Assembly: GCA_963823335.1 (NCBI GenBank)
Contig: CAWGLD010000005.1
Coordinates: forward strand, 160,001-224,000
Source of the DNA: an uncultured delta proteobacterium
GTDB taxonomy: Bacteria; Desulfobacterota; Desulfobacteria; Desulfobacterales; B30-G6
Length of the DNA stretch: 64,000 nucleotides
Reading direction: 5' to 3'
The position numbers and the translations under genes are program-made. The notes below the pieces were generated by a model. That model saw only the letters and a program-made list of their open reading frames with translations, did no database searches and had not been told where the DNA came from. Positions 23,283 through 52,652 of the stretch are shown piece after piece. Position 1 is the stretch's first letter. Every line of letters begins with the position of its first letter.

Positions 23283-23365
23283 TTGTCGACTCCCTGATTC
23301 CCGGAAGCAAGATGCGGTTTCTGATTATCTGAAACACACATCTTGCTTTCCAGTATTGTAGCTCT

Positions 23366-24442: not shown

Positions 24443-24612
24443 GATAGTCTCCTTCTCTTTGTAATGCTGCATAGGTCCTTGCCGGATTTTGATTTTTTCA
24501 GTCAGTCAAATTTTCTCTGTCCACCCCCTTTCAATTCGGATGTAAGGGTATTACCCACCGTCACTGTTTTTTCACAGATGGAAACCTTCGCCTGCAATAA
24601 GCGAAAGCCGGC

Positions 24613-25722: not shown

Positions 25723-25800
25723 ATGCTTTTCCTTCCTCACATAACTGATCCAAAAAAAAGTTTTCAGCAAGAGGTGTATGTTTATTGACGACAGTGTGTG

Positions 25801-25951
25801 TGTATATCGGAAACACAGTAACGGAATAAACACTAAAATGTCAAGCAAAATAATTCCTCATTCTTGCCCTTTCCGGAAGCCAGGAAAATGATATTTTTTT
25901 GCTTGACATTTTTGCAAAAATCTCTGTATGAATGTTTCCTATCCGAATACA
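25801..25951. promoter_or_regulatory. Symmetric divergent promoter region with candidate operators
   Basis: aaaatgtcaagcaaaa (25835-25850) and ttttgcttgacatttt (25897-25912) form a perfect inverted repeat; each contains TTGACA pointing outward and is followed by TGTTTCC...ACA. Confidence 0.65.
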
Positions 25952-26021
25952 AAGCGTCAACGATAAGCATACGATATTTTCTAACCCGACCTTGTACCCT
26001 AACGCGCCATGTGGAGGTTAT

Positions 26022-27887
26022 ATGAATACTGAAAAAATATTTGGAAGTCATGGCCGGCTGCTCAGAATTGACCTCACCCACCAGGTTGTTCAAACAGAAC
26101 AATTGCCCTTAAATGATTTGCGCCTTTATTTGGGCGGAAGAGGGCTGGGTGCTGCAATCATGCTCAGAGAACTTCCGGCCGGAATCGACCCCCTTGGCGA
26201 AGAGAACCTCCTCATTTTTTCTACGGGTCCTCTGGTAGACTCACCTGTTCCTGGGAGCAACCGGTATGTTTTGCACACGAAATCCCCCCAAACGGGTCTC
26301 TATTCCTTTTCCGTGTCAGGCGGCCGTTTTGGTGACATGCTGAAAAAAACGGGTAACGACGTGATCATCATCAAGGGAAAAGCCTCCAGGCCGGTTTATC
26401 TCTTTGTGAAAGATGATGGCCGGGTTGAATTCAAAGACGCGTCACACCTGTGGGGTAAGGATACCGAAAAGACCCAGGAAAGCATCTTGTCGGAAACCGA
26501 CCCGGATGCCAGGGTTACCTGTATCGGTCCCGCCGGGGAGAATCTTGTGCCCTATGCTTGTCTTATCAATGAGCGACGGGCACTGGGGCGTGGTGGTGCA
26601 GGTGCTGTCATGGGATCTAAAAATCTGAAAGCCGTGGCCGTGTTGGGCCGGACCAGTGTTACTTTGGCCGATTCCGAAACCATGAAAACGGCCATAAAAA
26701 ACGGCTATCAGGAGCTTAAACAGAATCCTATGACGGCGAAAATTCTGAAGACCTACGGCAGTTCGAATATGCTCCGGGGCCTGATGAACCACGGTGCGCT
26801 GCCCGGAAATAACTGGGCAGAGGCTGCTCTTGACGAAGCCGAGTCGATTACCGCCGAACAGATGCGGGAGCATTTCCATGTCAAGGATCTGGCCTGTTCG
26901 GCCGGATGCCCGGTCAAGTGCTCGAAGATGTTCGCGGTAAAAGAAGGGGACTATCGCGGTGCGCAAAGCGAGGGTCCTGATTACGAAACCGTTTATGCCT
27001 TTGGGTCCTGTTGCGGTGTTTACGACCTGGCGCCCATCATTAGGGCGGATGAACTTTGCGATCTGTTAGGTCTCGATACAATCAGTACCGGCGTAAGTAT
27101 TGCCTTTGCAATGGAATGCCTGGAAAAAGGCATCATCGATGCCGGTGATGCCGATGCGGGCGATCTGGCATTTGGAAATGCCAAGGCCATGCTCAAGCTT
27201 GTTGAAGATGTGGCTTACAAAAGAGGCTTTGGCGTGGTGGTGGCAGAAGGAACCCGTGCTATGGCAGGCCGTTTTGGACGTGATTCACACAAATTTGCCA
27301 TGCATGCCAAGGGCATGGAGCTGGGGGGCTACGATCCGAGGGGTATGAAAGGGATGGGGCTCGTTTATGCCTGCGGCCCGAGGGGCGGGTGCCACCATGC
27401 CGGCGGCTATACAGCCATTGCTGAAATGATGAACCCCCAGATAGACCGATTTTCAGAAAAGGGTAAGGCCCCACTTGTGGCCGGAACCCGAAACAGACGT
27501 GCTTCTCTTTGCGACTCAGGTCTCATCTGTGCTTTCGTGGCCATCGGGCTCAGCGATGAAACCGTAATCGGTATGCTAAACAGCGCCACCGGGTTCAATT
27601 ACCAGCCAAGTGATCTGCACACCATTGGAGACAGAATCAGCCAGATCGAAAGGGCTTTTAACTGCCGGGAAGGGCTGACACGTGGTGATGACGTGCTCCC
27701 TGAACGGTTGTTGTCAGAAAGTGTCACCCGCGGACCCAGTCAGGGAGGGAAAATGGAGGATTTTGAGGCCATGAAAGACGAGTTCTACACGCTGTGTGGC
27801 TGGGACCTCACTTCAGGTGCTCCTCTGGAAGAAAGACTAGAAGCACTGGATATCGGCTGGGTGAAAGACATTCTCAAAACAAAATAA
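26022..27887 (+). CDS. Aldehyde:ferredoxin oxidoreductase (tungsten family), copy 1
   Basis: YLGGRGLG, KSPQTG, GRGGAGAVMGSKNLKA, CSAGCPVKC, DYET, DLLGLDTIS, GYDPRG, DSGLIC; RBS ggagg. Confidence 0.95.
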   Translation: MNTEKIFGSHGRLLRIDLTHQVVQTEQLPLNDLRLYLGGRGLGAAIMLRELPAGIDPLGEENLLIFSTGPLVDSPVPGSNRYVLHTKSPQTGLYSFSVSGGRFGDMLKKTGNDVIIIKGKASRPVYLFVKDDGRVEFKDASHLWGKDTEKTQESILSETDPDARVTCIGPAGENLVPYACLINERRALGRGGAGAVMGSKNLKAVAVLGRTSVTLADSETMKTAIKNGYQELKQNPMTAKILKTYGSSNMLRGLMNHGALPGNNWAEAALDEAESITAEQMREHFHVKDLACSAGCPVKCSKMFAVKEGDYRGAQSEGPDYETVYAFGSCCGVYDLAPIIRADELCDLLGLDTISTGVSIAFAMECLEKGIIDAGDADAGDLAFGNAKAMLKLVEDVAYKRGFGVVVAEGTRAMAGRFGRDSHKFAMHAKGMELGGYDPRGMKGMGLVYACGPRGGCHHAGGYTAIAEMMNPQIDRFSEKGKAPLVAGTRNRRASLCDSGLICAFVAIGLSDETVIGMLNSATGFNYQPSDLHTIGDRISQIERAFNCREGLTRGDDVLPERLLSESVTRGPSQGGKMEDFEAMKDEFYTLCGWDLTSGAPLEERLEALDIGWVKDILKTK

Positions 27888-27972: not shown

Positions 27973-28185
27973 GTGACTACGTTCGTCAAGAAAAATCGAC
28001 AATGGTGGATTACGTGGTTAATTGTCTGGATCGTCATGTATCTGCTGGCAATTCTGATATATCCGGACGCCCCCTCGATTTGGTTTGGATGGCTGCCAAG
28101 TTCGGTGGTAACCACTTTCGGGTTGATGGTCGCTTCCCTGATCTTTGGATATCTATTTGCCAAACAGCGGTTCAGCCAGAAATAG
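27973..28185 (+). CDS. Small two-helix membrane protein, probable SSS-symporter accessory subunit
   Basis: 70 aa, hydrophobic, WFGWLP motif, RBS aggagg, upstream of an SSS gene. Confidence 0.75.
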   Translation: MTTFVKKNRQWWITWLIVWIVMYLLAILIYPDAPSIWFGWLPSSVVTTFGLMVASLIFGYLFAKQRFSQK

Positions 28186-28210
28186 TCCTGGTGTCAGTGT
28201 AAACCGCAAC

Positions 28211-28274
28211 AGCGAGCGCATTCCCCATAGGTTCTGCCGTTCGGCAGTGCTTCGCATGCTGCGAGGTTCTTCAA
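28211..28274 (+). repeat. Dispersed repeat family A copy
   Basis: agcgagcgcattcccc...ttctgccgttcggcagtgcttcgcatgctgcgaggttcttcaa; both ends match the 42808 copy. Confidence 0.85.
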
Positions 28275-28327
28275 AACCGTATCTGATCTGGAAATATAAT
28301 TTTCCAGACGCTGGAAAGGAGGCCAAA

Positions 28328-29815
28328 TTGATTCTGAAAGTCATCCCTATCTTAATAATCGTTGCTTACATGGTGGTCTGTCTTGTGGTCGGTTATACTG
28401 TTTTCCGTTCTAAAGCCAAAATGAAATCCGGAGATTATTTTATCGGAGATCGAACCAGCGGTTCTTTTGTGGGACCCATGTCCTACATATCCACGGTATT
28501 CAGCGCTCTTGTCTTCATGGGTGCCGTAGGTATTTATTTTGCCCTCGGTATTGGTTTCAATATCTTTCTTATCAGTGAAATGTTTCTCCTGGCTGTGTTT
28601 GTCCCCACGGTGGGATATCTCTTCTGGCGGCTGGCCCACCAACACCAATACGTAACACCAGCGGACCTGATGACCCATCGCTACGGAAACGGACGGACTG
28701 TCCGGATCATCGTGGGCTTGAACACCGTCGGTTTTATGATATTCTTCATGGCCACCCAAATCGTCGGCATTTCTTACATCATGGAAACCATTACCGGCGG
28801 GCTGATGAGCTATGGTGCCTCGGTTATCCTTATTTCGGTCGTTCTGGCCTTTTATATCGTTTTGGGTGGATTCCGTGCCATAGAGTACACCGACACCTTC
28901 CAGGTGATTATTCTCATGACCTGTGTCGTGGGTACCTTTTTATTTTTAAGCACGAGTATTGACTGGACGGCTGCTTTCGTCCAGGCGCAACAGATCCGTC
29001 CGGCACTTTTCAAGGCTCCGGGCCCGATACCCATCTACACGACCAAGCTTTATATGTCTCAACTCTTTGTCATCGGTCTCGGGTTTGCACTGATGCCGCA
29101 ACTCTGGGTACGGATATACGCCGTCAAGAACGAAAAAGGCCTGCAGAATATCGTGACCTATTTTATCGGGAGCACGATCATCCTGTTCATTATTTCGTTT
29201 TTCCTGGCTGTGGCTGCTGCGCCAATTATTGGCAAACTGTTCGCCGAAGGAGAAAAACTTGTCCCGGCCAAAATTGTCATGAAGCTCATGTTCAGCAACA
29301 TGCCTTCCTGGCTGGCAGCTACGCTGCTTACCGGAGCTATCGCGGCGACCATGTCAACCGTGGACTCGGCGGTGCTGGCCCTCAGTTCCATCCTGACCAT
29401 CGATCTTTACCGCAAGCCGTTCAATCCCGAAATGAACCCGGCAAAAGAGGCCACTGTCGGGCGGATTGTCAGTGTATTGCTGATAGCCATCATGGCAGTT
29501 CTGGCCTTTTATCCACCGCAGTTGCTATTCAATTCGCTCATAGACATGGCCTATCCCGGATTGGTAACCCTTGCACCGGCTGCCATCTTGGGTATGTTCT
29601 GGAAAAAAGCCGGAACCGCTGCCGCGATCTCCAGTATTGTGTCGGGCTCTGTCCTGGCCGTGTATCTGATTTTTCATAAAAACCCAATGGGGCTCTACTC
29701 AGGTTTCTGGACCCTGCTGCTCAGTTTGGCGGTCTTCGGGGCAGTGACGTTTCTTATGCCATCAAAAGACGCAAGCTTTTTCAGGGATGTCGAGCGTGTC
29801 AGTGTTCATGAGTAA
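28328..29815 (+). CDS. Sodium:solute symporter (SSS, PanF/PutP-like)
   Basis: DYFIGDR, GGFRAIEYTDTFQ, AATMSTVDS; TTG start after aaggagg. Confidence 0.92.
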   Translation: MILKVIPILIIVAYMVVCLVVGYTVFRSKAKMKSGDYFIGDRTSGSFVGPMSYISTVFSALVFMGAVGIYFALGIGFNIFLISEMFLLAVFVPTVGYLFWRLAHQHQYVTPADLMTHRYGNGRTVRIIVGLNTVGFMIFFMATQIVGISYIMETITGGLMSYGASVILISVVLAFYIVLGGFRAIEYTDTFQVIILMTCVVGTFLFLSTSIDWTAAFVQAQQIRPALFKAPGPIPIYTTKLYMSQLFVIGLGFALMPQLWVRIYAVKNEKGLQNIVTYFIGSTIILFIISFFLAVAAAPIIGKLFAEGEKLVPAKIVMKLMFSNMPSWLAATLLTGAIAATMSTVDSAVLALSSILTIDLYRKPFNPEMNPAKEATVGRIVSVLLIAIMAVLAFYPPQLLFNSLIDMAYPGLVTLAPAAILGMFWKKAGTAAAISSIVSGSVLAVYLIFHKNPMGLYSGFWTLLLSLAVFGAVTFLMPSKDASFFRDVERVSVHE

Positions 29816-29856
29816 GATGACCTGTTTCACCACACATGGGTCTGGAGAGAAGCATT

Positions 29857-30468
29857 ATGATGGTTGAAGAGTATGTTAGTAAAATCGCCCAGCGGATAAA
29901 AAACCGCCGGATCGAACTGGGTCTTTCTATTCGGGAAGCAGCGAGGTTAACTGACACGTCTCCCTCGACGATCCAGAAAATCGAATCGAACGAGATGGTC
30001 CCATCCATAGCGATTCTAATGAAGATTGCCCGTGGTCTCAATCAAAAGGTCACCTCTTTTTTTGAGAACGCGTCCGAACCCCGGAAAGTAGTGTTGGTGC
30101 GCCATGATGAGCGAAGGTCGACGACAATCCCCGCCTCCGGTCTCAAGGTTGAGGACTTGGGCTCATCGATAGAAGACGCTCGGCTGGAAGCATCGATCCT
30201 GACCATAGAAAAAGGGGGCAGCAGTGGGAAGGATCCCCTCATCCACGAGGGAGAGGAAATCAAGTTCTGTATGAAAGGCAAAATCGGTTACACAATCAGT
30301 GATGAAGAGTATGTGCTCGAAGCTGGAGACTGTATCCATTTTAAATCAGGAAACCCTCACTACTGGAAGAACGAAGATGCCGGAACCACGCGGGTTTTCT
30401 CTGTTGTGTTCAACGGTCCCTATTCCCAGCCGGCAAGAACAAAAAATGGGCGGGTAAAAAAAAGATAG
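29857..30468 (+). CDS. XRE-family HTH plus cupin transcriptional regulator (PuuR-like)
   Basis: GLSIREAARLTDTSPSTIQKIE HTH; HEGEE...GDCIHF...PH cupin. Confidence 0.92.
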   Translation: MMVEEYVSKIAQRIKNRRIELGLSIREAARLTDTSPSTIQKIESNEMVPSIAILMKIARGLNQKVTSFFENASEPRKVVLVRHDERRSTTIPASGLKVEDLGSSIEDARLEASILTIEKGGSSGKDPLIHEGEEIKFCMKGKIGYTISDEEYVLEAGDCIHFKSGNPHYWKNEDAGTTRVFSVVFNGPYSQPARTKNGRVKKR

Positions 30469-30554
30469 TCACAACCGGAAAACACTGCAGGACAATTAAA
30501 AAATCTGAACAAATTCATTGGTATGTGAAACAAAGCCGAAAAGGAGGAAAACCC

Positions 30555-31718
30555 ATGAGAGAACATGCCCTTTTTAATATGAGCTCCGGACCTGTCCAGG
30601 GAAGTGCCCGGACACTCCGGGCGCTATCCCAGCAAATTCTTTACCATCACGATCCTGAGTTTGCTGAGATATTTGATGCCTGCACCGAAAAACTGCAACG
30701 GTTTTTCAAGACATCAGGAGATGTCATTATCATGCAGGGTGAGGCACTCCTGGGCTTGGAAGCTGCGGCGTTCTGTACGATCGAACCCGGTGACAAATGT
30801 CTCAATTTAGTGTCCGGGATATACGGTCATCTATATGCCTGGTACATAGAGGCCTTCGGCGGCCAGATAGTTGAAGTGAGGACCGATTACAACAAGGCTA
30901 TCGATCCGGCCGAGGTGGAGAAGGCTTTTGCTGAGAACCCGGACATCAAGATCATGGCGGTTGTACACAGTGAGACACCTTCGGGAACTGTCAACCCCAT
31001 CGAGGACCTCTGCCCCATCGCTAAGAAATACGGCGCAATAACTATCGTCGATGCAGTTTCTTCCATTGGTGGGACAGAAGTGAATGTAGACGACTGGGGG
31101 ATCGACATCTGTTGTATCGGCCCGCAGAAGTGCCTGGCGTCGTCCCCGGGACTTGCACCAGTGGCTGTGAGTGAAGATGCCTGGGAAAAGATGCGCACTA
31201 AATCCAAGCCAGTGAGGTACTCCTACATGAGCATGCTCGATTTTAAAGAGCAATGGCTGTGTGAGAAAGAAAAGCGCAGTTTTCCGTATACCATGTTTAC
31301 CAATGAAGTCGTGGCCCTTGACGAAACCCTGGATCAGGTGTTTGAGGAAGGTCTGGAAAATATGATCGCTCGACACAAAACGGCGGCCAGAATGGCGCGT
31401 GCCGGGGTTAAGGGGATGGGACTTTCACTCTGGGCAGACACGGAAGACATCTGCGGGCCCTGCGCCACGGCGGTCAGAGCGCCGGACGGTGTCGACGAAG
31501 TCAAATTGCGGCGGCATCTTTATGATAAATATCGGATAACCATTTCCGGTGGATTCCGCGAACTTAAAGGAAAACTTTTCCGACTGGGCCATATGGGGCC
31601 GACGGCCAACCCTGCCTATGTCGCCATGCAGTTGGCAATGGTGGAAAAATCACTCCACGATATGGGCTACCCGGTTAAACTCGGCAGCGGTGTTGGGGCG
31701 GCTCTGGAAGCGATTTAA
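30555..31718 (+). CDS. Class V aminotransferase, pyridoxamine-pyruvate aminotransferase-like
   Basis: QGEALLGLEAAA, LNLVSGIYG, YNKAIDP, HSETPSGTVNP, VDAVSS, GPQKCL, TAVRAPDGVDE, RLGHMGPTA; parallels the Mesorhizobium PPAT sequence as recalled. Confidence 0.8.
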   Translation: MREHALFNMSSGPVQGSARTLRALSQQILYHHDPEFAEIFDACTEKLQRFFKTSGDVIIMQGEALLGLEAAAFCTIEPGDKCLNLVSGIYGHLYAWYIEAFGGQIVEVRTDYNKAIDPAEVEKAFAENPDIKIMAVVHSETPSGTVNPIEDLCPIAKKYGAITIVDAVSSIGGTEVNVDDWGIDICCIGPQKCLASSPGLAPVAVSEDAWEKMRTKSKPVRYSYMSMLDFKEQWLCEKEKRSFPYTMFTNEVVALDETLDQVFEEGLENMIARHKTAARMARAGVKGMGLSLWADTEDICGPCATAVRAPDGVDEVKLRRHLYDKYRITISGGFRELKGKLFRLGHMGPTANPAYVAMQLAMVEKSLHDMGYPVKLGSGVGAALEAI

Positions 31719-31746: not shown

Positions 31747-32145
31747 ATGCTGAATTTTGCAAACGAGAAATGCGTTAACTGTCGACTCTGTGAGGAGGTC
31801 TGCTCTTTCAGACTTACCAATGCGGTTTATCCCGGTGTTGCGGCTATTCGCATCGGTCGGGAGGAAGGCAGGTGGGGGACACCCTATGCCATGGTTTGTA
31901 ATCTGTGTGAGGGTTTGGAAGAACAGAAATGCATAACGGCATGTCCGGAAGATGCGCTCAACCTTGGTAACGGGGTGATCGTTTGGGATGATGAAAAATG
32001 TACCCGGTGTGAGCTGTGTGTCGACGCGTGTCCGCAAAAGGGGGTGGCTTTCGACAGCCGGTCCGAACGTATTCATATCTGTGATCTTTGCGGCGGTGAA
32101 CCGCTATGTATCGAGTGGTGCCCTGAAGAAGTGATTACCCTTTAA
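31747..32145 (+). CDS. Multi-[4Fe-4S] electron-transfer subunit (AOR partner)
   Basis: CVNCRLCEEVC, CNLC...CITACP, CTRCELCVDACP, CDLC...CIEWCP. Confidence 0.92.
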   Translation: MLNFANEKCVNCRLCEEVCSFRLTNAVYPGVAAIRIGREEGRWGTPYAMVCNLCEGLEEQKCITACPEDALNLGNGVIVWDDEKCTRCELCVDACPQKGVAFDSRSERIHICDLCGGEPLCIEWCPEEVITL

Positions 32146-32169: not shown

Positions 32170-33982
32170 ATGAAATTCAAGGGATATAAAGGACAGCTCT
32201 TGGTTGTAGATCTGACCTCGGGAACCATTGGCAAGCGGGGTCTCGACGAAGCGATCCTCCAAAAATATATCGGTGGCCGCGGTCTTGCAGCCAGAATTCT
32301 CTACGATGAAATCAAAGCCAAAGCCGACCCATATTCAGATGACAACCGTCTTCTCTTTATCACTGGGCCAGCCGCTGGTACGCTCATCCCCACCAGTGGG
32401 CGTTACGGTGTGGGTACCAAGTCGCCTTTAACCGGAGGCTTTTCCGTAGGATATGCCGGTGGACACTGGGCCAATAATTTGAAATACGCTGGTCATGACG
32501 GCATTCTATTTCAGGGCAGGAGTCCCAGTCCGGTTTACCTGTTTGTGGATGACGACAAGATCGAACTTCGTGATGCCGGAACCCTGTGGGGCAAGACCAC
32601 CGAACAAACTGAAGACACCCTGAAAAATGATCTGGGAAAGGGTTTTGAAATAGCCTCCATCGGGTTTGGCGGTGAGAACCAGGTTGGCTACGCAACCATA
32701 AGCAATGAGCAGCACGTGGTGGGCCGGGCCGGACAGGGTGCCGTCATGGGCTGGATGAACCTGAAAGCCGTCGCGGTTCGGGGGTCCGGAAGCGTCGATA
32801 TGGGTGTTGCAGGCAGGCAAGGTATCCAGGATGTTTTTTTTCTACACAAGACCATCCGCGAGAATGAAGTACGGGGACTCTTTCGCGATGTCGGTACCAC
32901 CGGCATGCTCGATCCCATAAACGAAGCAGCGGGCCAGCCCAGTTTTAATTTTCAAAAAACCTCTTTTCCAGATGTTGAAAAAATAAATGCCAACAACATG
33001 CGGCCCTGGTTTCAGAGGTTCGAATCCTGCTCCGGTTGTCCTGTGGCATGCGGCTCGATAACCAAATTCAAGCTGGACGGTGCTGACTTCACCACCGAAC
33101 GAATCGAGCATCAGAGTGTGGGAGCCCTGGCAACGAATTGCGGTATCTCCGATCTGCCGCGGGTCTTCGAAGCGCACGACCTCTGTGATAAATATGGTAT
33201 CGACACAATTTCTGCGGGTCTCTCCATCGCCTGGGCCATGGAGTGTTCTGAAAAGGGTTTGCTGTCCCTCGAAGAAGCGGACGGACTAGAAAATCAAGTT
33301 TGGCAATGCAATGGTCCTCAAGCCTTTGATTGAAAAAATCGCCCGAAAAGAAGGCATTGGTGCCTTGCTGGCCAAGGGGGTCCGGGCGGCTTCCCAGGAA
33401 CTGGGACGCGGATCGGAAAAATACGCCATGCACGTCAAGGGGCTGGAGATGCCCGGGTACGATCCGCGTGGCTTTTTCGGTATGGCTCTCAATCTGGCCA
33501 CAACCGCCCGTGGGGCCGACCATAATAAGGCTTTTACCATCGCGGCCGAGTTTCTGGGTGTTCTGGGCGATTACGACCGGTTTGCCTATGAAGGCAAGGC
33601 CGAGCTGGTCAAACGGATGCAGGATTCGACCGTTATTATCGACTCTATTATCATGTGCATGTTTACGGTGGATCTGGGTATCAGCGTGGATCTGTATGCC
33701 AAGGCCGTCAATCTCGCCACCGGTATGAACATAAGCGCTGACGATGTCTATACCATCGGTGACCGGGTCAACACGCTGGAGCGTCTGTTCAACCTGCGTG
33801 AAGGTGTCGGTTCGGACCAGGATAGACTGCCCGAACGGTTTGCCGAGGAGCCCGGTTCCGACCCGGAAGGACATGTAGTGGACGTATCCAGGATGTTGCC
33901 GGAGTATTATGAGCTCAGAGGATGGGATAAAAACGGTGTTCCGACCCCAGAGCATCTAAAAAAAATAGGCATCGACATTTAA
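32170..33982 (+). CDS. Aldehyde:ferredoxin oxidoreductase, copy 2, +1 frameshift near 33290
   Basis: YIGGRGL, KSPLTG, CSGCPVAC, DKYGIDTIS; next frame GYDPRG, RGADH, DSIIMC; extra A in gaaaatc. Confidence 0.9.
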
Positions 33983-34013: not shown

Positions 34014-35204
34014 ATGGCAAATCTCAATGTGAATTTTGCAGGATTGGAGCTGAAGAATCCATTTATCGCAGCCTCTTCCGAGTTGACCGATGAGTTCGAC
34101 AAAATCCGATGGGCAGAAGACTTCGGCGCCAGCGCCGTTTGTACCAAACTTGCGTTTCTCCAGGTGCCCTTTTATGCGCGTCCCTACCACGTGTTTGAAA
34201 AGGGAGGCGGATTTTACTCCCCCTCCGGGCATCGCCTGGGTGTGGAAGAGGCGCAGGTACTGATCCGTAAAACCAAGGAACAGACCGAACTGAAGGTGAT
34301 TGCCAACATGATGGGCCCCGGGGAAAATCTCGAAGGCTGGGTCAAGCTGGCTCAGATGCTCGAAGAGGCCGGCGCGGATATGGTGGAACTGAACATGTCC
34401 TGCCCCAACGTCGGTCTGATGGCAAAAAAGATGAACGTCGATGTCACCGATGAACTGGGAGCCCACCTGGGCAAGAACCCCGTACTGGCGCGAGAAGTCT
34501 GCCGGGCAATCTCGAGCAATCTCACCATTCCGGTCATGGCAAAAATGACCCCGGAAGGGCCTTGTGACATCGTGGCCGAGGGGTGTCAGCAGGGTGGTGC
34601 AGCCGCGGTGTCCGGGATCAATTGCCCCATGTCTCTGCCGGGATGTGATATTTACAACGACGGAAAGCCCCTTTACCCCAGCACCCATAATCAGTCCTTT
34701 GCCGGTATTTGCGGACCTTGGATTCGCCCACTGGCCTTCCGGCACATAGCCCAGATGCGTATGAAGTGTCCTGATCTGCCCATCGCCGGTGGCGGCGGTA
34801 TATCAAACTGGCAGCAATCTGTCCAGATGGTCATGTACGGTGCCACCGTCCTGACATACTGTACCCTGTTTTACACCGATGGCTACAAGGCTTTACCCAA
34901 GCTTGAAAAAGGTGTGCGGAAGTGGATGGACGAGATGGGGCACGAAACCCTGGCTGATTTTCAGAATATTGCCCTCAAACACATCGTCACCCCGCAAAAA
35001 GTCGAATACTTTGACGCCTACCCGGTCATCGATGAAGAGAAATGTAACGGCTGCAAGGTGTGTGTAGACCTGGGTCACTGTGAAGTAATGTCCTTTGACG
35101 AGGAAAGTAAAAAGGCCCATGTCCAAAAAAAGGACAAGTGCTACATGTGCGGTGTCTGCTACTGGCTCTGCAAGCGCAAGGCCATTACCATGGAAGCTGT
35201 CTAA
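34014..35204 (+). CDS. Dihydropyrimidine dehydrogenase PreA-like FMN TIM-barrel with C-terminal ferredoxin domain
   Basis: GLELKNPFIAAS, ELNMSCPN, PVMAKMTP, GIN, GGGGIS, CNGCKVC and CYMCGVCYWLC. Confidence 0.85.
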   Translation: MANLNVNFAGLELKNPFIAASSELTDEFDKIRWAEDFGASAVCTKLAFLQVPFYARPYHVFEKGGGFYSPSGHRLGVEEAQVLIRKTKEQTELKVIANMMGPGENLEGWVKLAQMLEEAGADMVELNMSCPNVGLMAKKMNVDVTDELGAHLGKNPVLAREVCRAISSNLTIPVMAKMTPEGPCDIVAEGCQQGGAAAVSGINCPMSLPGCDIYNDGKPLYPSTHNQSFAGICGPWIRPLAFRHIAQMRMKCPDLPIAGGGGISNWQQSVQMVMYGATVLTYCTLFYTDGYKALPKLEKGVRKWMDEMGHETLADFQNIALKHIVTPQKVEYFDAYPVIDEEKCNGCKVCVDLGHCEVMSFDEESKKAHVQKKDKCYMCGVCYWLCKRKAITMEAV

Positions 35205-35295
35205 GATTGATCTCAGTCACCAAACAAAAATCGATACGTAATATTTTATCACAACCGATGTGCTACAGAGGTTGGGAAAATGGAGGTTCTTTAAC

Positions 35296-36714
35296 ATGCC
35301 GTATGATAGCTTTCAGCATTATTTAGAGACGCTTGAAAAAAATGACTGTGTCAAGTGGGTCGAGAAAGAAGTAGATAAAGATTGGGAAATTACGAGTGTG
35401 GCTCGTAATTACTTCAGGAAAACCAAGGAAAGTGAAAGATGTGCATTGGGCTTTCGAAACGTGAAAGGGTACGACATTCCCGTGGTTCTCGGAGCCATCG
35501 GGGCATCCCGGAAAATATATGGTCTCGCCATTGAAACAGACCCTGGGTTCAGCAGTATCAAAGAGACCTTGTCCGGTGCTCTGGCAAACCCCATCGACCC
35601 GGTAGTGGTCGATAGTGGCCCGTGCAAGGATGTGATTTTGACCGGTGATGAAGTGGACTTGTACCGCTTTCCCATTCCCACATGGACACCGGAAAAGGAT
35701 CCAGCTCCATTTCTGACAGCCCCTTGTCTGTTCACACGCCACGCTGAAACCGGGGTTGGAAACATCGGAACTTACCGGATGGAAATAAAGGCCAAAAATG
35801 AAACAGGTGTGTTATGGGATCTTCCAAGCCAACATGGCGCCGTTCATTACGCCTCATGGGAAAAACGGAACGAACCCATGCCCATGGCGGTTGTCATCGG
35901 AGCGGATCCGACCATCATCATGTCATCGGTAAGCAAGGTGCCGTTGGGGGTTGACGAAATATCCGTTGCCGGAGGACTGCGTGGCAAACCCGTGGAGGTG
36001 GTCAAATGCGAAACATGCGACATATACGTACCAGCCACCGCCGAAATCGTTCTCGAAGGCGTGGTTTTGCCTGGTGAGAGTGTGGTGGAAGGACCCTTTG
36101 GGGAATACACCGGATACATGGGTGGTCCGTATATGATGCCCAAGTTTTATGTCAAGTGCATCACCCATCGCAAAAAGCCGGTCTATCACGCACTGTTCAG
36201 CCAGATGCCGCCAAGCGAGAGCAGCCTGATGCGGCAGCTGCCCGAAGAGGCCAATGTCTATCAACATCTGAACGGCTATCTGAAAATACCCGGTATAAAG
36301 GACGTTCATCTGCCTGAGGCAGGCGGGAGCTACTCCATCTGCTGGATCAGCATGAAAACCTCCTTTCCCGGACACGTACAGCAAGTCTTGTCCGCTGCCT
36401 GGACCCACCACCCCACATTTGCCAAATGGATCGTGGTCACCGACGATGACGTGGACATTCGCGACCCGTTTATACGGGAATGGATTCTGGCTTTTAGGGT
36501 GGAACCTCAAAAAGACATCACGTTTATGCCAAACACGGCCCCCATACTCCTGGATCCATCCTCGGATCCCCCCGAGGTGCCGCTATGGGATCGGCGCTCT
36601 TCCAAGGTGCTGATCGATGCCACCCAGAACTGGGAATATCCGGAAATTGCCTTGCCGCCCCAGAAGTATTTGGACCAGGCGGCTGACCAGTGGGAAAAAT
36701 ACGAATTAGATTGA
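35296..36714 (+). CDS. UbiD-family (prFMN-dependent) decarboxylase
   Basis: NIGTYRME, VVIGADP, VPATAEIVLEG, EGPFGEYTGY, VTDDDVD, KVLIDAT. Confidence 0.93.
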   Translation: MPYDSFQHYLETLEKNDCVKWVEKEVDKDWEITSVARNYFRKTKESERCALGFRNVKGYDIPVVLGAIGASRKIYGLAIETDPGFSSIKETLSGALANPIDPVVVDSGPCKDVILTGDEVDLYRFPIPTWTPEKDPAPFLTAPCLFTRHAETGVGNIGTYRMEIKAKNETGVLWDLPSQHGAVHYASWEKRNEPMPMAVVIGADPTIIMSSVSKVPLGVDEISVAGGLRGKPVEVVKCETCDIYVPATAEIVLEGVVLPGESVVEGPFGEYTGYMGGPYMMPKFYVKCITHRKKPVYHALFSQMPPSESSLMRQLPEEANVYQHLNGYLKIPGIKDVHLPEAGGSYSICWISMKTSFPGHVQQVLSAAWTHHPTFAKWIVVTDDDVDIRDPFIREWILAFRVEPQKDITFMPNTAPILLDPSSDPPEVPLWDRRSSKVLIDATQNWEYPEIALPPQKYLDQAADQWEKYELD

Positions 36715-36728
36715 TCAAGGAGAATTCT

Positions 36729-37679
36729 ATGAAAACTTTCGATATAAAAAAGGTGGCGGTTATCGGCACCGGAACCATGGGCCCGGGTATCGCCCAGGTG
36801 CTGGCTCAGCACGAGATCGATGTGCAGATATTCGACATCGATCCCGAACAGTTAATAAAAGCTCGGGAAACCCTGGGCGCGAACCTGGGCCTGGTGAAAC
36901 AGGCCGGTATGCTCTCTGACACCGAAGCGGTAGAGATCCAGAACCGGATTCAAAACGCCGCCAGTCTGGCGGATGCTGTCTTGAATGCCGACCTGGTACT
37001 CGAGGTCATTCCCGAAGTGATGGATCTCAAGACACGGCTTTTGCGTGAACTGGACGAAATCTGCGGGCCGGACACCATCCTGGCCAGCAACACCTCGGGG
37101 CTCAGCATTACCAGGATGGCCCAGGCCACCCGGCGTCCGGAAAAAGTGGTTGGTATGCACTGGTGGAACCCACCCATAATCATCCCGGTCATCGAAATCG
37201 TCAAGGGTGAGTCAACGGGTGAGGATGTTCTGCAAACAGTTGATAATCTGATCCGTAAAATAGGTAAGGTACCGGTTCTGGTCAAAAAAGACGTTCCGGG
37301 CTTTTTGGGCAATCGCTTACAGTACGCGCTCATGCGAGAAGCAATTGCGCTATTGAACGAGGGGGTTGCCAGCGCGGAAGACATCGACACCATGATCAAG
37401 GCCGGAATCGGATTCAAGTTTCCCGTTATGGGACCACTTGAAACAATCGACATGGCGGGTCTGGACATTTACTACCGCGTGTCCCAGTACCTGAATAAAG
37501 AGTTGGACAAGTCCGAAGGCGCCGCGCCCATCGTTGCCAAGATGGTCGAGCAGGGCGATCTGGGTCTCAAGAGCGGCAAAGGTTTCTACGATTATTCAAA
37601 CCAGGATGTCAAAGCGTTGATGGGTGGAAGGATTAAAAAACTGCTCCTTCTGCTGAAAGAGCTGGGATACGTGAAATAG
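36729..37679 (+). CDS. 3-hydroxyacyl-CoA dehydrogenase-family protein, 5-formyl-3-hydroxy-2-methylpyridine-4-carboxylate dehydrogenase-like
   Basis: GTGTMGPG, SNTSG, GMHWWNPPIIIPVIE, VKKDVPGF, GIGFK...GP, DMAGLDIY; family certain, specific assignment from recalled similarity and context. Confidence 0.75.
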   Translation: MKTFDIKKVAVIGTGTMGPGIAQVLAQHEIDVQIFDIDPEQLIKARETLGANLGLVKQAGMLSDTEAVEIQNRIQNAASLADAVLNADLVLEVIPEVMDLKTRLLRELDEICGPDTILASNTSGLSITRMAQATRRPEKVVGMHWWNPPIIIPVIEIVKGESTGEDVLQTVDNLIRKIGKVPVLVKKDVPGFLGNRLQYALMREAIALLNEGVASAEDIDTMIKAGIGFKFPVMGPLETIDMAGLDIYYRVSQYLNKELDKSEGAAPIVAKMVEQGDLGLKSGKGFYDYSNQDVKALMGGRIKKLLLLLKELGYVK

Positions 37680-37720: not shown

Positions 37721-38722
37721 ATGAAATCAAGCATCACACTGATCAAGGGCGCCAGGTTGATCGTGGAGCATTGCATGACGGTCAAGGCCGACGACAAGGT
37801 CCTGATTATCGCCGACGATGAGCACATGCCGGAAGCACAAAGTATTGCCGGCGTGGCATACTCACTGGGAGCCTATCCCGTGATTGCCAATGTGACCCAT
37901 CATGTCAGCGCCGCATTGGCTTCCATGACGGTGCCCATGGAACCACCGGCGCATCTGGCCCAGGCTATGCTGAACGCCGACGAGATCATCATCACCACCA
38001 ACCTGGAATGGGCAAACCGTTTTGCCCACGTAGACCCGGTCAAAGGCAGCGTCGAACGCGGTGCCAAGATAGCCTCCGTCGAGGAGGGGCTGGGCAGCTG
38101 GGACCTTGAGATCAGCGACATCGACCTGATCACCGAACGGGCGGAGAAGATAATCACGGCCATGCAAGGCGCCAAGTGGGTTCACGTAACCAATCCAGCG
38201 GGCACCGATGTCAATGTCTGTATTGAGAATCGGCCGCCACTGAAGGTCGTTCCGGTAAAAGAACCCGGTATCATGATGGGCCCAATCCCGTTGTGGGGGG
38301 AGGTCGCATATGCCGCCGTTGAGAACAAAACCCACGGCAAGATCGTGGTGGACGGTATCATGCTGGGTGTCGGGATCAGTGGCACCTTGCCGGAACATAT
38401 GACCTGGACCATCGAAAACGGTCGTGCGGTGGATATTTCCGGTGGCGAGGCAGCGCAAAAATTAAAAAAGGTCGTAGCCGATGCTGAGGAGAATGCCAAC
38501 ACCATTGCCGAATTTGCCATCGGTACCAGTCATAAGGAAAAATTCGGTAGCCCTTCTGAAAAAGGCATGCTGGGAACGGTCCACTTTGCCCTGGGGGACA
38601 ATGCCCACTGCTACCCCGGGGGACAGAGCTGGTGCAGTGTTCATCTTGATGGCAGTGTTCGGGATGTGACCATCGAAGTGGATGGCAAGCCGATTATGAA
38701 AGACGGCCAACTCATCATCTAA
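37721..38722 (+). CDS. Aminopeptidase T/M29-like metalloprotein (NicX-related fold)
   Basis: GEV, HGKIVVDG, IAEFAIGT, EKGMLGTVHFALGDN, HLDG. Confidence 0.8.
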   Translation: MKSSITLIKGARLIVEHCMTVKADDKVLIIADDEHMPEAQSIAGVAYSLGAYPVIANVTHHVSAALASMTVPMEPPAHLAQAMLNADEIIITTNLEWANRFAHVDPVKGSVERGAKIASVEEGLGSWDLEISDIDLITERAEKIITAMQGAKWVHVTNPAGTDVNVCIENRPPLKVVPVKEPGIMMGPIPLWGEVAYAAVENKTHGKIVVDGIMLGVGISGTLPEHMTWTIENGRAVDISGGEAAQKLKKVVADAEENANTIAEFAIGTSHKEKFGSPSEKGMLGTVHFALGDNAHCYPGGQSWCSVHLDGSVRDVTIEVDGKPIMKDGQLII

Positions 38723-39174: not shown

Positions 39175-40056
39175 ATGAAAGCCTTTGATTATGAGCGGCC
39201 CTCGGGTTTTGAAGATGCCTGTCGGTTACTGAATGGGGCCGGTGGCAGCAAGAAAGTTTTGGCGGGAGGGACGGATCTTCTTGTCAAAACAAGACATGGG
39301 GTGATTGCTCCAGAAGGGATGATCAGTCTCAGGGACATTCCCGGGTTGTCGGACATCTCATTTGATCCTGACAAGGGTCTATCGCTCGGTGCCATGACGC
39401 GACTTACCGATGTCGAAAACGATGGTATCGTGAAAGAACAATACCCGGCACTTGGCGCGGCAGTCGCTACCATAGGATCCACACAGGTCCGAAACAGGGC
39501 CACCATCGGAGGCAACATATGCAATGCGGCACCATCAGCGGATTCACCGCCGATCCTAATCGCCTACGGGGCTTCCGTAGTTATCGGGGATGGAAAAACT
39601 GAACGAGAAGTGCTGTTAGAGGAGTTTTTTACCGGCCCAGGACAGACCGTTCTGCGGGTGGGGGAAATCGTCAAGCAGATTCTTGTCCCGACACCGCCAA
39701 AAAATGTCTTCGCTATCTACATCAAGGCCGCCAGGTCTGCCCTCGATATCGCCCTTGTCGGTGTGGCCCTTGTGGCCATTTACGATCCTGCCGATTTGGT
39801 GGTCAAGGATCTGAAAGTAGCTTTGGCGGCCGTGGCGCCGACACCGGTTCGATCCAGAGAAATGGAACGCATCGTCATTGGAAACAGACTCGACCAGGCA
39901 ATCATCGAGAAAGCCGTTGGAGAATCCTGCACCGATGCCTGTTCCATAACCGATATCCGGACAACCGAAGGCTATCGGGACACATTGGTTGAAACTCACA
40001 CCAGGCAGGCGCTTGAAGCGGCCAGGGCCTGGATCGAAAAGGGAGGTGCGCGGTGA
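39175..40056 (+). CDS. Xanthine dehydrogenase-family FAD subunit
   Basis: AGGTDL, QVRNRATIGGNICNAAPSAD. Confidence 0.95.
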   Translation: MKAFDYERPSGFEDACRLLNGAGGSKKVLAGGTDLLVKTRHGVIAPEGMISLRDIPGLSDISFDPDKGLSLGAMTRLTDVENDGIVKEQYPALGAAVATIGSTQVRNRATIGGNICNAAPSADSPPILIAYGASVVIGDGKTEREVLLEEFFTGPGQTVLRVGEIVKQILVPTPPKNVFAIYIKAARSALDIALVGVALVAIYDPADLVVKDLKVALAAVAPTPVRSREMERIVIGNRLDQAIIEKAVGESCTDACSITDIRTTEGYRDTLVETHTRQALEAARAWIEKGGAR

Positions 40057-40523
40057 AACGGGAACTCAACACAACGATCAACGGTCAGCCTTACAACCTC
40101 TTCGTGAGCACTCACCGCACACTTCTTGAGGTCATTCGCGACGACCTCGGTCTGACCGGGACCAAGGTGGGCTGTGAGATGGGAGAGTGCGGCGCCTGTA
40201 CGGTAATCATGGATGGCCGAACGGTTAATTCCTGCCTGGTTCTGGCACATGAGGCAGAAGGTTGTGAGGTGCAAACCATCGAGGATTTGGCAAAAGATGG
40301 CAAGCTGCATCCCATCCAGACATCGTTTATCGAACACGGAGCCATACAGTGCGGTTTCTGTACTTCCGGCATGATCATGTCAACCAAAGGTCTTTTGGAA
40401 AAGAACCCCCATCCCCTAAATGATGAAATCCGTTCAGAAATGCGGGGTAACATCTGCCGTTGTACAGGATACGTCAAGATCGTCGAGGCCATTGAAGCCG
40501 TCAGGGATGGAGGTGACAAATGA
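40053..40523 (+). CDS. Xanthine dehydrogenase-family [2Fe-2S] subunit
   Basis: GCEMGECGACTV, NSC, QCGFCT, NICRCTGY. Confidence 0.96.
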   Translation: MKRELNTTINGQPYNLFVSTHRTLLEVIRDDLGLTGTKVGCEMGECGACTVIMDGRTVNSCLVLAHEAEGCEVQTIEDLAKDGKLHPIQTSFIEHGAIQCGFCTSGMIMSTKGLLEKNPHPLNDEIRSEMRGNICRCTGYVKIVEAIEAVRDGGDK

Positions 40524-43160: not shown

Positions 43161-44693
43161 ATGAACGCTCAACCACTCATTAGAACCACCGGTATAACCA
43201 AATCTTTTCCCGGTGTCCTGGCGAATGATCATATCGACTTTGATCTCTTTCCCGGAGAGGTCCACACACTTCTGGGAGAAAACGGCGCCGGAAAAACAAC
43301 TTTGATGAACATCCTTTACGGGCTGTATCAACCCGACCAGGGGCGTATCGAGGTAGGCGGGCAGGAAACCCATATTCGTTCTCCCTACGATTCACTGAAG
43401 CTTGGTATCGGCATGGTGCACCAGCACTTTGCGCTGATTCCGAACATGAGTGTTCTTGAAAATCTCGTATTGGGGTTCGAAGGCGGGTTTGTATTAAACA
43501 TGAAGGCTGCTGAAATAAAGCTGGTACGGATTTCAGAAGAGTATGGGCAGGCCATCGATCCACATGAATTGATCCAGAACCTCTCCGTGGGAGAACGTCA
43601 GAGAACCGAAATCATAAAGACACTTTTTCGCGGTTCCGAGGCCTTGATTCTGGACGAACCCACCTCGGTTCTGACGCCCATCGAAGCGGAGGAGCTTTTT
43701 CAGACCATTATTGCACTGAAAAAGGCCGGCAAGGGAGTGGTCCTGATTACCCACAAGCTGAACGAAGCACTGGCCATATCAGATCGCATCAGCATTTTAA
43801 GTCTGGGCCGCAAGATTGCGGAGCTGGATGGTGATGAGCTTCGTGCCATGGGCGAAAAAGAAGCTACCAAAAAAATTCTGAATATTATGTTCGGGGGTAA
43901 ACCCATACCCGAATGTTCCCTGGTGGAGAAAACAATTTCGGACCAGGTTGTCTTACAACTCGAGGATGTTGAGGTGATGAACAGCCGAGATGTAATCGGT
44001 CTGAAGAAGGTCTCTTTTGAAATTCATGGGGGAGAGATATTTGGGATCGCAGGTGTCGACGGTAACGGGCAGAAGTCGCTATGTGAGGCAATTGGCGGTC
44101 AACGTGAGCTCGTATCCGGGCGAATACGATTCAAAGGAGAGGATATTTCACGCCAGAGCATCTCCAGGCGACACGAGATGGGTATATCCTATATTACGGA
44201 CGACCGTATGAATGAGGGATGTGTCCTCGACTTGAGCCTGTCTGAAAATGCTATTTTAAGGGGGTACCGCCGGCAACCCTACTCCCGGTTTAACATTATC
44301 AATAACAGGGTTGTTGACGGGTTTGCCAACACGTTGATCATGGATTTTGACGTCAAGGCAACCGGTCCGGATGTCAGGGCCGGAACACTCAGCGGCGGCA
44401 ATATCCAGAAATTCATCCTGGCCCGCGGGCTCTCCACCAAGCCGGGATTGATTGTCTGCAGCAAACCCACCTACGGACTGGATGCCAGGACCGTTAGCTA
44501 CATTCAAGAGCTGCTTCTGGAAGAAAGCAAGCAGGGTACCGCCGTTCTGCTCATCACTTCAGATATGGATGAACTGATCAACTGCTCAGACCGGATAGGG
44601 GTCCTGTTCAATGGTAAGATCATGGCTATTTTGGAGACGTGCGACGCCACACCGGAAAAAATCGGCAAGCTTATGCTTGGTATTGAAGAATAG
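43161..44693 (+). CDS. Nucleoside/sugar (CUT2) ABC ATPase with two NBDs
   Basis: GENGAGKTT, GMVHQHF, DEPT, GVDGNGQ, LSGGNIQK. Confidence 0.93.
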   Translation: MNAQPLIRTTGITKSFPGVLANDHIDFDLFPGEVHTLLGENGAGKTTLMNILYGLYQPDQGRIEVGGQETHIRSPYDSLKLGIGMVHQHFALIPNMSVLENLVLGFEGGFVLNMKAAEIKLVRISEEYGQAIDPHELIQNLSVGERQRTEIIKTLFRGSEALILDEPTSVLTPIEAEELFQTIIALKKAGKGVVLITHKLNEALAISDRISILSLGRKIAELDGDELRAMGEKEATKKILNIMFGGKPIPECSLVEKTISDQVVLQLEDVEVMNSRDVIGLKKVSFEIHGGEIFGIAGVDGNGQKSLCEAIGGQRELVSGRIRFKGEDISRQSISRRHEMGISYITDDRMNEGCVLDLSLSENAILRGYRRQPYSRFNIINNRVVDGFANTLIMDFDVKATGPDVRAGTLSGGNIQKFILARGLSTKPGLIVCSKPTYGLDARTVSYIQELLLEESKQGTAVLLITSDMDELINCSDRIGVLFNGKIMAILETCDATPEKIGKLMLGIEE

Positions 44694-44702
44694 AGGAACA
44701 AC

Positions 44703-46672: not shown

Positions 46673-46804
46673 ACTGCATCGTAATCATATCGTTAATCAA
46701 GCATTGAAAGGGGGTGATGGCAAGCCAACACGAAACTTGAATGAAACAATCTTAACTGAAAATGCTTCAACAATTTCTCAATCCACAAAATAAGGAGCGA
46801 CAAC

Positions 46805-52647: not shown

Positions 52648-52652
52648 GTCGA

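Follow-up and report, generated by a model that had tools for sequence, protein, structure and literature searches.

A pyridoxamine-pyruvate transaminase-type gene at the head of a candidate vitamin B6 catabolic cluster in an uncultured Desulfobacterales genome

Introduction

What does a class V aminotransferase do when the loop that should hold the phosphate of its cofactor, pyridoxal 5'-phosphate (PLP), carries a glutamate in place of the usual threonine? The question is raised by a gene at positions 30555-31718 of a 64,000-nt stretch of DNA (hereafter the window) from an uncultured delta proteobacterium, which corresponds to positions 160,001-224,000 on the forward strand of contig CAWGLD010000005.1, assembly GCA_963823335.1. 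A first-pass annotation of this DNA had compared the product with pyridoxamine-pyruvate aminotransferase (PPAT) of Mesorhizobium loti and had taken the gene as a pointer to the catabolism of vitamin B6. The sequence and fold comparisons described here support the assignment of the gene as a PPAT-type enzyme, a divergent member of a recognized small family. We consider it probable that this transaminase, using free pyridoxamine as the donor and releasing pyridoxal, opens a catabolic pathway for vitamin B6 that is encoded by the surrounding cluster.

Results

Identification of the transaminase as a PPAT-type enzyme

The reading frame and the sites discussed below are listed with their coordinates; 2z9u is a solved structure of PPAT and NF046070 is the NCBIfam model of the same enzyme.

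30555..31718, + strand, PPAT-clade class V aminotransferase of 387 aa (open reading frame translation, 2z9u match, NF046070, structure model)
30541..30547, + strand, Shine-Dalgarno sequence AAGGAGG, 7 nt 5' of the ATG at 30555 (sequence reading)
30741..30743, + strand, codon GAG for Glu63, the equivalent of PPAT Glu68, replacing Thr of the S-G-T-G-S phosphate loop
31050..31052, + strand, codon for Asp166, the equivalent of PPAT Asp171 (pyridine N1) (2z9u alignment; section 7 of PMC9309667)
31128..31130, + strand, codon for Lys192, the equivalent of PPAT Lys197 (Schiff base with pyridoxal) (2z9u alignment; section 7 of PMC9309667)
31581..31583, + strand, codon for Arg343, the equivalent of PPAT Arg345 (2z9u alignment)

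The ATG at 30555 is favored as the start codon over the GTG at 30525, because it is preceded by AAGGAGG and because the homologues are mostly of matching length (384-391 aa in 88 of the 120 listed). The GTG, which has no ribosome-binding site, was set aside.

In a phmmer search against all solved structures, the best relative of the window protein was 2z9u (E = 6.3e-92, 311.6 bits, residues 6-386 against chain positions 10-387), which carries the Foldseek title pyridoxamine-pyruvate aminotransferase, M. loti; a plant AGT1 paper lists 2Z9X likewise as pyridoxamine-pyruvate aminotransferase. The second solved relative, PucG (3isl), scored 174.9 bits (E = 2e-50), 137 bits below 2z9u. The alignment with 2z9u contains no gaps over the first 230 residues or so (to about residue 236), and E63, D166 and K192 of the window protein pair with chain positions 67, 170 and 196. 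According to section 7 of PMC9309667, the Schiff base of PPAT is formed by K197, and D171 pairs with pyridine N1. Since D166 and K192 pair with 170 and 196, the chain index of 2z9u must be the literature number minus 1, and position 67 is therefore Glu68, with E63 as its equivalent. Farther along, Arg343 aligns with PPAT Arg345, and the segments GPQKCL (189-194), TAVRAPDGVDE (305-315) and RLGHMGPTA (343-351) are all present and aligned with 2z9u.

Profile and fold comparisons gave the same ranking. A match to PF00266 (class V aminotransferase, 92 bits) places the protein in fold type I, class V. The best of its 24 NCBIfam matches was NF046070 (pyridoxamine--pyruvate transaminase) with 396.4 bits, short of the equivalog cut-off of that model, and the next family reached 214 bits. 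The AlphaFold2 model, built from an alignment of 36 sequences in which D166 and K192 are invariant, had a mean predicted local distance difference test score (pLDDT) of 95.0. Its top Foldseek match was 2z9u_A (template modelling (TM) scores 0.96/0.95, rmsd 1.3 Å, 39% identity), a narrow lead by fold over PucG (TM 0.93) and the AGT-type enzymes that follow (TM 0.90-0.93).

What the first-pass annotation had seen in this gene is confirmed, and its interpretation is supported; the failure of Glu63 to align with PPAT Glu68, which it had named as a refutation, did not occur. The GAG codon at 30741-30743 was confirmed within the 387-aa translation of 30555-31718, the equivalence of Glu63 with PPAT Glu68 agrees with the pairing to chain position 67, and the likeness continues as it had said through GPxKCL, TAVRxPDGVDE and RxGHMGPTA. 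Its comparison with PPAT was borne out in the alignment as well as in the structure model, 2z9u being first by both.

Glu63 as a signature of the clade

Residues 61-72 of the window protein, which contain Glu63, read QGEALLGLEAAA. Column 63 was compared between two sets of proteins: 120 homologues with 50-93% identity, collected by a word-based search, and 76 other class V aminotransferases (L002 and L009-L083 in our numbering of loci), fetched as controls by peptide patterns without the Glu motif. The controls originated from a single-protein locus search; the majority are ordinary class V enzymes, with 31-37% identity. The residue at column 63 was E in 117 of the 120 homologues and D in one, the two gaps both being fragments. 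The controls carried T in 62 cases and S in 7 (T/S in 69/76), E in 4, and D, C and P in one each; an extra residue before the loop was present in 62 of them. The remaining catalytic positions were common to both groups, as the controls keep K192 (76/76), D166 (76/76) and R343 (75/76). The genome's own paralogue (L002, 33% identity) has SGTGS at the loop, where the window protein, shorter by one residue, has Q-G-E-A, and the PucG position matching Glu63 in the phmmer alignment is Thr.

Because Glu is found in 117 of 120 homologues against T/S in 69 of 76 controls, its presence is not due to chance: on these alignments, Glu within a loop shortened by one residue is the clade signature, replacing the Thr of S-G-T-G-S. 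The first-pass annotation had correctly seen that Glu takes the place of the usual loop residue; the loop that it gave, G-S/T-G-T, should be read as the S-G-T-G-S of the controls, with Thr as the residue replaced. The bulk of Glu68 in PPAT is said, in the abstract of the 2008 structure paper, to block the phosphate of PLP. The side chain of Glu63 would likewise fill the phosphate pocket, excluding both PLP and pyridoxamine 5'-phosphate. Since the JGI pipeline already names relatives of the window protein PPAT, the Glu signature taken alone is a confirmation, not a discovery. The NCBI name for the near homologues is 'alanine--glyoxylate aminotransferase family protein'.

All five control enzymes with E or D at column 63 are relatives of PPAT, including Bathyarchaeia L010, Syntrophomonas L009 (with Asp) and a more distant G-E-G group consisting of Fusobacteriaceae L011, Methanimicrococcus L040 and L050. 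Together with Peptoclostridium acidaminophilum L161, the last three form a sister group of the PPAT clade with the motif G-E-G-[IM]-[LV] (34-37% identity). This sister group might hold the gene for the Clostridium pyridoxamine(-phosphate) transaminase activity that is mentioned in PMC9309667.

The position of the window protein was also examined in a quick maximum-likelihood tree (LG+G4, 108 rows) of the window protein, PPAT-like loci and ordinary class V enzymes. Besides the window protein, the input comprised 88 PPAT-like loci and 20 ordinary class V enzymes chosen by hand, and one of the 108 candidate loci was dropped on account of a short match. All 88 rows with E or D lie on one side of a single branch, with a support of 98 in the Shimodaira-Hasegawa-like approximate likelihood-ratio test (SH-aLRT). 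A plasmid gene of Rhizobium daejeonense (L159), found by tblastn of plasmids, named pyridoxamine--pyruvate transaminase by NCBI and 40% identical to the window protein, reads LQGEPVLGLEAAA at the motif stretch. This pipeline-named PPAT is nested within an 83-row clade that also holds the window protein (SH-aLRT 98).

Genes surrounding the transaminase

All genes between 25932 and 47842 lie on the + strand and are separated by short gaps. Apart from the transaminase itself, they are the following; L004, L005 and L007 are loci used for comparison, in which some or all of these genes are syntenic.

25932..27887, + strand, aldehyde:ferredoxin oxidoreductase 1 (AOR1) (Pfam AFOR_N and AFOR_C; syntenic in L004 and L007)
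28145..29815, + strand, sodium:solute symporter, nearest to PanF but below the cut-off, start uncertain (Pfam, NCBIfam; syntenic in L004, L005 and L007)
29836..30468, + strand, regulator with XRE-type helix-turn-helix and cupin domains (PuuR-like), directly upstream of the transaminase (Pfam, NCBIfam; syntenic in L004, L005 and L007)
31747..32145, + strand, poly-ferredoxin-like 4Fe-4S protein between the transaminase and AOR2 (Pfam Fer4 families)
32170..33982, + strand, aldehyde:ferredoxin oxidoreductase 2 (AOR2), in two frames (Pfam; DNA alignment with L004 and L007)
34014..35204, + strand, flavoprotein like PreA and dihydropyrimidine dehydrogenase (DPD), with a 4Fe-4S motif (Pfam, NF006183, match to DPD structure 1gt8)
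35260..36714, + strand, UbiD-family decarboxylase, dependent on prenylated flavin mononucleotide (prFMN) (Pfam, TIGR00148, 6h6x/6h6v)
36690..37679, + strand, NAD dehydrogenase of the 3-hydroxyacyl-CoA dehydrogenase (HCDH) family, like 5-formyl-3-hydroxy-2-methylpyridine 4-carboxylate (FHMPC) 5-dehydrogenase (4om8, NF042925)
37721..38722, + strand, NicX-like metalloprotein of the M29 fold (weak Pfam M29, Atlas PF26233 NicX, fold)
39175..42799, + strand, molybdenum hydroxylase of the xanthine dehydrogenase (XDH) family, with FAD, 2Fe-2S and Mo subunits (Pfam; NCBIfam matches all below cut-offs)
43161..47842, + strand, ATP-binding cassette (ABC) transporter with an ATPase, two permeases and a BMP-family binding protein at 46805-47842 (Pfam, NF047927)

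Two of these neighbors point to vitamin B6. The dehydrogenase at 36690-37679, whose true start is probably about 18 codons later, has 4om8 as its best match among solved structures (E = 9.1e-77, 261.6 bits), ahead of the best 3-hydroxybutyryl-CoA dehydrogenase (215.5 bits); 4om8 is FHMPC 5-dehydrogenase, an enzyme of a B6 pathway. The BMP-family binding protein has a single NCBIfam match at E <= 1e-10, NF047927 'putative B6 ABC transporter substrate-binding protein' (331 bits, below the cut-off). As judged by these homologies, the two proteins support a link to vitamin B6 that does not depend on the transaminase. The suggestion of the first-pass annotation that the transaminase points to B6 catabolism thereby gains support, from neighbors that both score below their equivalog cut-offs.

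Of the other enzymes, the UbiD-family protein matched TIGR00148 above the cut-off (314 bits), with 6h6x and 6h6v as its best structural matches, and the PreA-like protein reached 210 bits against NF006183, below the cut-off of 335. The NicX-like protein gave no sequence match among solved structures and none in NCBIfam; its nearest Atlas clusters carry Pfam PF26233 NicX, and its model (pLDDT 87) has NicX 7cn3 as the best fold match (TM 0.78), above the M29 aminopeptidases. NicX binds Fe(II) through His265, Ser302, His318 and Asp320, according to PMC7910607. These ligands were traced by alignment through the NicX-type protein of the Rhizobium plasmid locus, which has all four at those numbers. 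The window protein keeps His318 and Asp320 (H-x-D) and has Glu for His265 and Leu for Ser302, and so does not carry the complete ligand set; its chemistry may therefore differ from that of NicX. The Rhizobium gene (L159 4017-5060), with all four ligands kept, has Phe for the substrate-guiding His105 of NicX. Both NicX-type proteins may act on methylated dihydroxypyridines derived from B6.

The AOR2 gene is split by one extra base in the A-run at 33288-33293, while DNA alignment showed that the copies in L004 and L007 are in a single frame. Since the difference is a single base in an A-run, a second split gene is present in the window and the assembly has only 11 contigs, the frame split is probably an assembly error; a true AOR2 pseudogene, the less probable reading, was set aside. 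The second case is a branched-chain-type ABC permease, of which the open reading frames 14345-15259 and 15093-15689 correspond to the first and last parts of BPD_transp_2, a likely frameshift.

Several genes outside this array deserve mention. Farther along, beyond the ABC transporter, are an M20 amidohydrolase and molybdenum-cofactor genes (YqeC, MobA-like). The latter occupy 51159-55071 and include YqeC, two MobA-like nucleotidyltransferases (one fused to an HD domain) and a gene with a MoCF-biosynthesis domain, which are likely maturation factors for the molybdenum hydroxylase. On the other side, just upstream of AOR1, the - strand at 19804-25848 encodes an alkyl-sulfatase-like metallo-beta-lactamase protein and a Pot-like ABC transporter. 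This transporter is directly beside the transaminase in L006 and L008, and it may carry a B6 vitamer or an amine. Still farther upstream, at 2423-5412 and 7870-11489, are glycine-cleavage P-protein subunits, a transketolase-like protein and a class I/II aminotransferase; PLP-dependent enzymes are thus encoded in these segments despite no PLP synthesis being detected in the genome.

Conservation of the cluster

Synteny extends over the complete array, AOR1 through XDH, in two other metagenome-assembled genomes (MAGs), one of Desulfobacterales (L004, transaminase 97% identical) and one of SAR324 (L007, 80% identical). A census of neighbors was made by tblastn with the window proteins at 82 loci of the clade (L004-L010 and L084-L158), many of them short contigs, so that the counts below are lower bounds.

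BMP binding protein near the transaminase, 36/82 loci
two permeases of the BMP system, 29/82 and 32/82 loci
FHMPC dehydrogenase-like gene, 20/82 loci
XDH subunits, 16-18/82 loci
NicX-like gene, 11/82 loci
ferredoxin and AOR2, 7/82 loci
UbiD gene, 3/82 loci
PreA-like gene, 2/82 loci

The order transaminase-ferredoxin-AOR was found in L004, L005, L007, L091 and L113. This order and the order Bmp-transaminase-HCDH reappear in Chloroflexota, Thermomicrobiales and Bipolaricaulia, as well as in an archaeon of the Bathyarchaeia. The neighbors of the Rhizobium plasmid PPAT are a lactonase-type protein, short-chain dehydrogenases, a GMC oxidoreductase, a '2,5-dihydroxypyridine 5,6-dioxygenase' and a BMP-type ABC system. 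In L006 and L008, where the transaminase lies beside the Pot-like ABC transporter, no other cluster gene of the window was matched, the downstream side not having been examined.

Host genome and supply of vitamin B6

The genome measures 4.37 Mb in 11 contigs and is 93.9% complete, and the loci nearest to the window come from MAGs of Desulfobacterales and 'delta proteobacterium'. A dsrA gene scoring above the cut-off (615.8 bits) indicates a host of the sulfite/sulfate-reducer type. Two genes of the COX1 family are also present. A strictly oxygen-free pathway was set aside in view of these genes and of the dioxygenase fold of the candidate for ring cleavage.

PdxS, PdxJ and PdxA were not found in this genome, absence from a MAG not being proof. 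Pyridoxal kinase was not found in it either, TIGR00687 giving no match and Phos_pyr_kin only 23.8 bits, while a PdxH-type C-terminal domain and a UbiX candidate are present. Among 15 genomes of the family, this one included, there was no PdxJ (0/15), no PdxS (0/15) and no full-length match to Phos_pyr_kin (0/15). The 16 genomes taken from other families had PdxJ in 9 cases and PdxS in 4. The transaminase was detected in 5 of the 15 family genomes, all of one genus, and in none of the 16 from other families. The absence of any full-length gene of the ThiD/PdxK family from the 15 genomes concerns thiamine as well: auxotrophy of the family for B6, perhaps extending to the thiamine pyrimidine, would be one explanation, and the use of unknown genes another.

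Discussion

Proposed pathway

The pathway that we propose would begin with uptake of a B6 vitamer by the BMP-type ABC system, the sodium symporter, or both (step 1). The transaminase would convert pyridoxamine to pyridoxal with a 2-oxo acid as acceptor, pyruvate by analogy (step 2). For this reaction, free pyridoxal would form an aldimine on Lys192, and Arg343 would hold the amino or oxo acid with which the amino group is exchanged; with Glu63 presumably occupying the place of the phosphate anchor, the pyridoxal vitamer would be released as a product and not kept as a cofactor. The ferredoxin and the adjacent tungsten-type AOR would oxidize the aldehyde to 4-pyridoxate (step 3), which is proposed because the product of the transaminase is an aldehyde and because ferredoxin and AOR are encoded directly downstream. 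An aldehyde-forming transaminase beside an aldehyde oxidoreductase would be chemically sensible. Further oxidation of side chains could be carried out by the FHMPC dehydrogenase-like enzyme and the second AOR (step 4), decarboxylation by the UbiD enzyme (step 5) and hydroxylation adjacent to the ring nitrogen by the molybdenum hydroxylase (step 6), leaving reduction or opening of the ring, or both, to the PreA-like and NicX-like proteins and amidohydrolases (step 7).

We suggest, more tentatively, that the transaminase may be the first step of a third, undescribed route of B6 degradation in which the oxygen-requiring steps have been replaced. The replacements would be the ferredoxin-linked tungsten AORs, the prFMN-dependent (UbiD) decarboxylase, the water-dependent molybdenum hydroxylase, the PreA-like ring reductase and the NicX-fold metalloenzyme with altered ligands. 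The core of such a route would consist of the BMP transporter, the transaminase, the FHMPC-type dehydrogenase, the molybdenum hydroxylase and the NicX-like protein, and would extend over Chloroflexota, Thermomicrobiales, Actinomycetota, Bipolaricaulia and Bathyarchaeia.

A number of observations weigh against a catabolic PPAT. The score of the transaminase with NF046070 lies below the equivalog cut-off of 600, and its identity to characterized or pipeline-named PPATs is only 39-40%. Likewise, the dehydrogenase reaches 328 bits against its best NCBIfam model, FHMPC_DH (NF042925), where the cut-off is 500, and the cut-off of NF047927 for the binding protein is 400. The tree is a short LG+G4 search, in which the placement of L159 and L160 was flagged as a meeting of long branches. 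Loci L084-L158 were fetched by a pattern including GEA[LVI]L[GA]LEAA; as the Glu motif is part of this pattern, the presence of Glu in them was fixed by the search and does not count as independent evidence. The UbiD and PreA-like genes were near the transaminase at only 3 and 2 of the 82 loci. The transaminase step is assigned on evidence at the level of residues, steps 3-7 by family and position only. Finally, wholesale destruction of B6 looks odd in a genome that is apparently unable to make PLP.

One further point of this kind concerns the second substrate. Both Arg336 and Arg345 of PPAT are reported, in the same 2008 abstract, to bind the substrate carboxylate. The equivalent of Arg345 is well kept (column 343 is R in 115/120 homologues). 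Arg336 aligns with Phe334, at a place where the M. loti and Rhizobium enzymes have S-S-G-R. Arg335 adjoins Phe334 in the window protein, and column 335 is K or R in 57/120 homologues. Because Arg336 is not kept at the aligned position, the oxo-acid partner of the window enzyme may differ from pyruvate.

Alternative explanations

The apparent auxotrophy leads to an alternative in which imported pyridoxamine is converted to pyridoxal for PLP formation, the neighboring oxidoreductases serving another substrate. Such salvage would fit the lack of detected PdxS, PdxJ and PdxA in the host and of PdxJ and PdxS in its family, the presence of a PdxH-type oxidase, the two transport systems that flank the transaminase, and the two loci (L006 and L008) where, with the limit on the downstream side given above, the gene was seen beside the Pot-like transporter and apart from the other cluster genes. 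We nevertheless regard it as unlikely. As no pyridoxal kinase was found in the genome, nor a full-length match in the 15 family genomes, the pyridoxal formed would be without a known route to PLP. All 15 genomes share the apparent auxotrophy and only 5, of a single genus, have the gene, which therefore is an accessory trait. The tight and repeated synteny with the FHMPC dehydrogenase-like gene also argues against salvage, since the known relative of that enzyme acts well beyond the salvage steps.

The two other alternatives concern the reaction itself, and both appear less probable than salvage. An aminotransferase with a PPAT-like mechanism might act on a B6 analogue, on another aminomethyl heteroaromatic compound or with another oxo acid, and so would not be strictly EC 2.6.1.30. 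The loss of Arg336 at its aligned position, the identity of 39-40% to known PPATs with a score below the equivalog cut-off, and downstream enzymes unlike those of both described B6 pathways are in line with this idea, to which we give little weight. Against it, the chemistry would require a substrate that serves as its own electron sink, pointing to a 3-hydroxy-4-aminomethylpyridine, and two of the neighbors are nearest to B6-specific families. Slightly less weight still is given to an ordinary PLP-dependent class V aminotransferase (AGT, SGAT or PucG-like) taking part, together with the XDH-type enzyme, the M20 amidohydrolase and the BMP transporter, in the breakdown of purines or other N-heterocycles. 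XDH subunits, M20 amidohydrolases and binding proteins of the BMP family are typical of purine clusters as well; the NCBI naming, the NF046070 score below the cut-off, and the rank of PucG as second-best solved relative by sequence and fold are of the same tendency. In the loop, however, Glu stands where the phosphate-binding Thr is expected and one residue is missing, in contrast to T/S in 69 of 76 controls and Thr in PucG, and PPAT is ahead of PucG by 137 bits. At E <= 1e-10 the binding protein has a match to a B6 model and none to a purine-nucleoside model, and the dehydrogenase neighbor is nearest to a B6-pathway enzyme. A PPAT-type transaminase at the entry of B6 catabolism thus remains our preferred explanation.

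Comparison with known systems

As a single gene, the transaminase is of modest interest; the cluster as a whole is a plausible candidate for an undescribed form of B6 breakdown. Its value lies in the setting, a PPAT-type gene heading a conserved array of AOR, UbiD, molybdenum hydroxylase and NicX-like enzymes in a dsrA-bearing Desulfobacterales genome, with parts of the array recurring across many phyla. If the proposal is true, B6 vitamers could supply carbon and nitrogen to sulfate reducers and other anaerobes, a testable genetic basis would be available for cofactor turnover in anoxic sediments, and substrates would be assigned to several orphan AOR, UbiD and NicX-like proteins. In the literature searched, supplements and subscription journals being outside the coverage, there was no anaerobic B6 route and none using AOR, UbiD, a molybdenum hydroxylase or NicX.

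Among ordinary class V enzymes (AGT, SGAT, PucG and PhnW; PF00266), the window protein shares the fold (TM 0.90-0.93) and the Lys, Asp and Arg residues. It differs in the loop, where those enzymes have S-G-T-G-S with an extra residue and keep PLP, and the window protein has Q-G-E-A. With PPAT of M. loti (EC 2.6.1.30; 2Z9U-2Z9X) it has in common the Glu, the Schiff-base Lys, the pyridine-N Asp and the distal Arg, and a BMP-type ABC transporter is linked both to the window gene and to the Rhizobium plasmid PPAT. The differences from PPAT are Phe334 in place of Arg336, with Arg335 adjoining it, a host that carries dsrA, and the neighbors, which are AOR, UbiD, PreA-like, XDH and NicX-like proteins in the window and pyridoxal dehydrogenase, lactonase and flavin oxygenase in the aerobic route.

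The nicotinate catabolism of Pseudomonas putida (NicAB, NicX) resembles the proposed pathway in the use of a molybdenum hydroxylase on a pyridine ring, followed by an enzyme of the NicX fold, and differs in the iron ligands His265 and Ser302 of NicX, for which the window protein has Glu and Leu. Nicotinate is also fermented anaerobically in Eubacterium barkeri. We know of no nicotinate pathway with a transaminase as the entry step.

Only two bacterial routes of B6 degradation are described, both from aerobes, according to the Introduction of PMC3538738. They are pathway I (Pseudomonas MA-1, M. loti) and pathway II (Pseudomonas IA, Arthrobacter). The scan of the cluster genes (25932-47842; Pfam, NCBIfam) detected no homologue of GMC oxidase or of the flavin ring-opening oxygenase. 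Pathway I of the M. loti type employs PPAT, pyridoxal 4-dehydrogenase, lactonase, 4-pyridoxate dehydrogenase, FHMPC dehydrogenase, a decarboxylase of the class II aldolase type, MHPC oxygenase and a final hydrolase. Of this set, only the PPAT-like and FHMPC dehydrogenase-like members were found in the cluster, the rest of the genome not having been searched for the other enzymes. By homology, then, the window shares with the aerobic pathways the entry transaminase and a step of the FHMPC dehydrogenase type, and differs from them in having two AORs, a ferredoxin, UbiD, a PreA-like protein, a molybdenum hydroxylase and a NicX-like protein instead.

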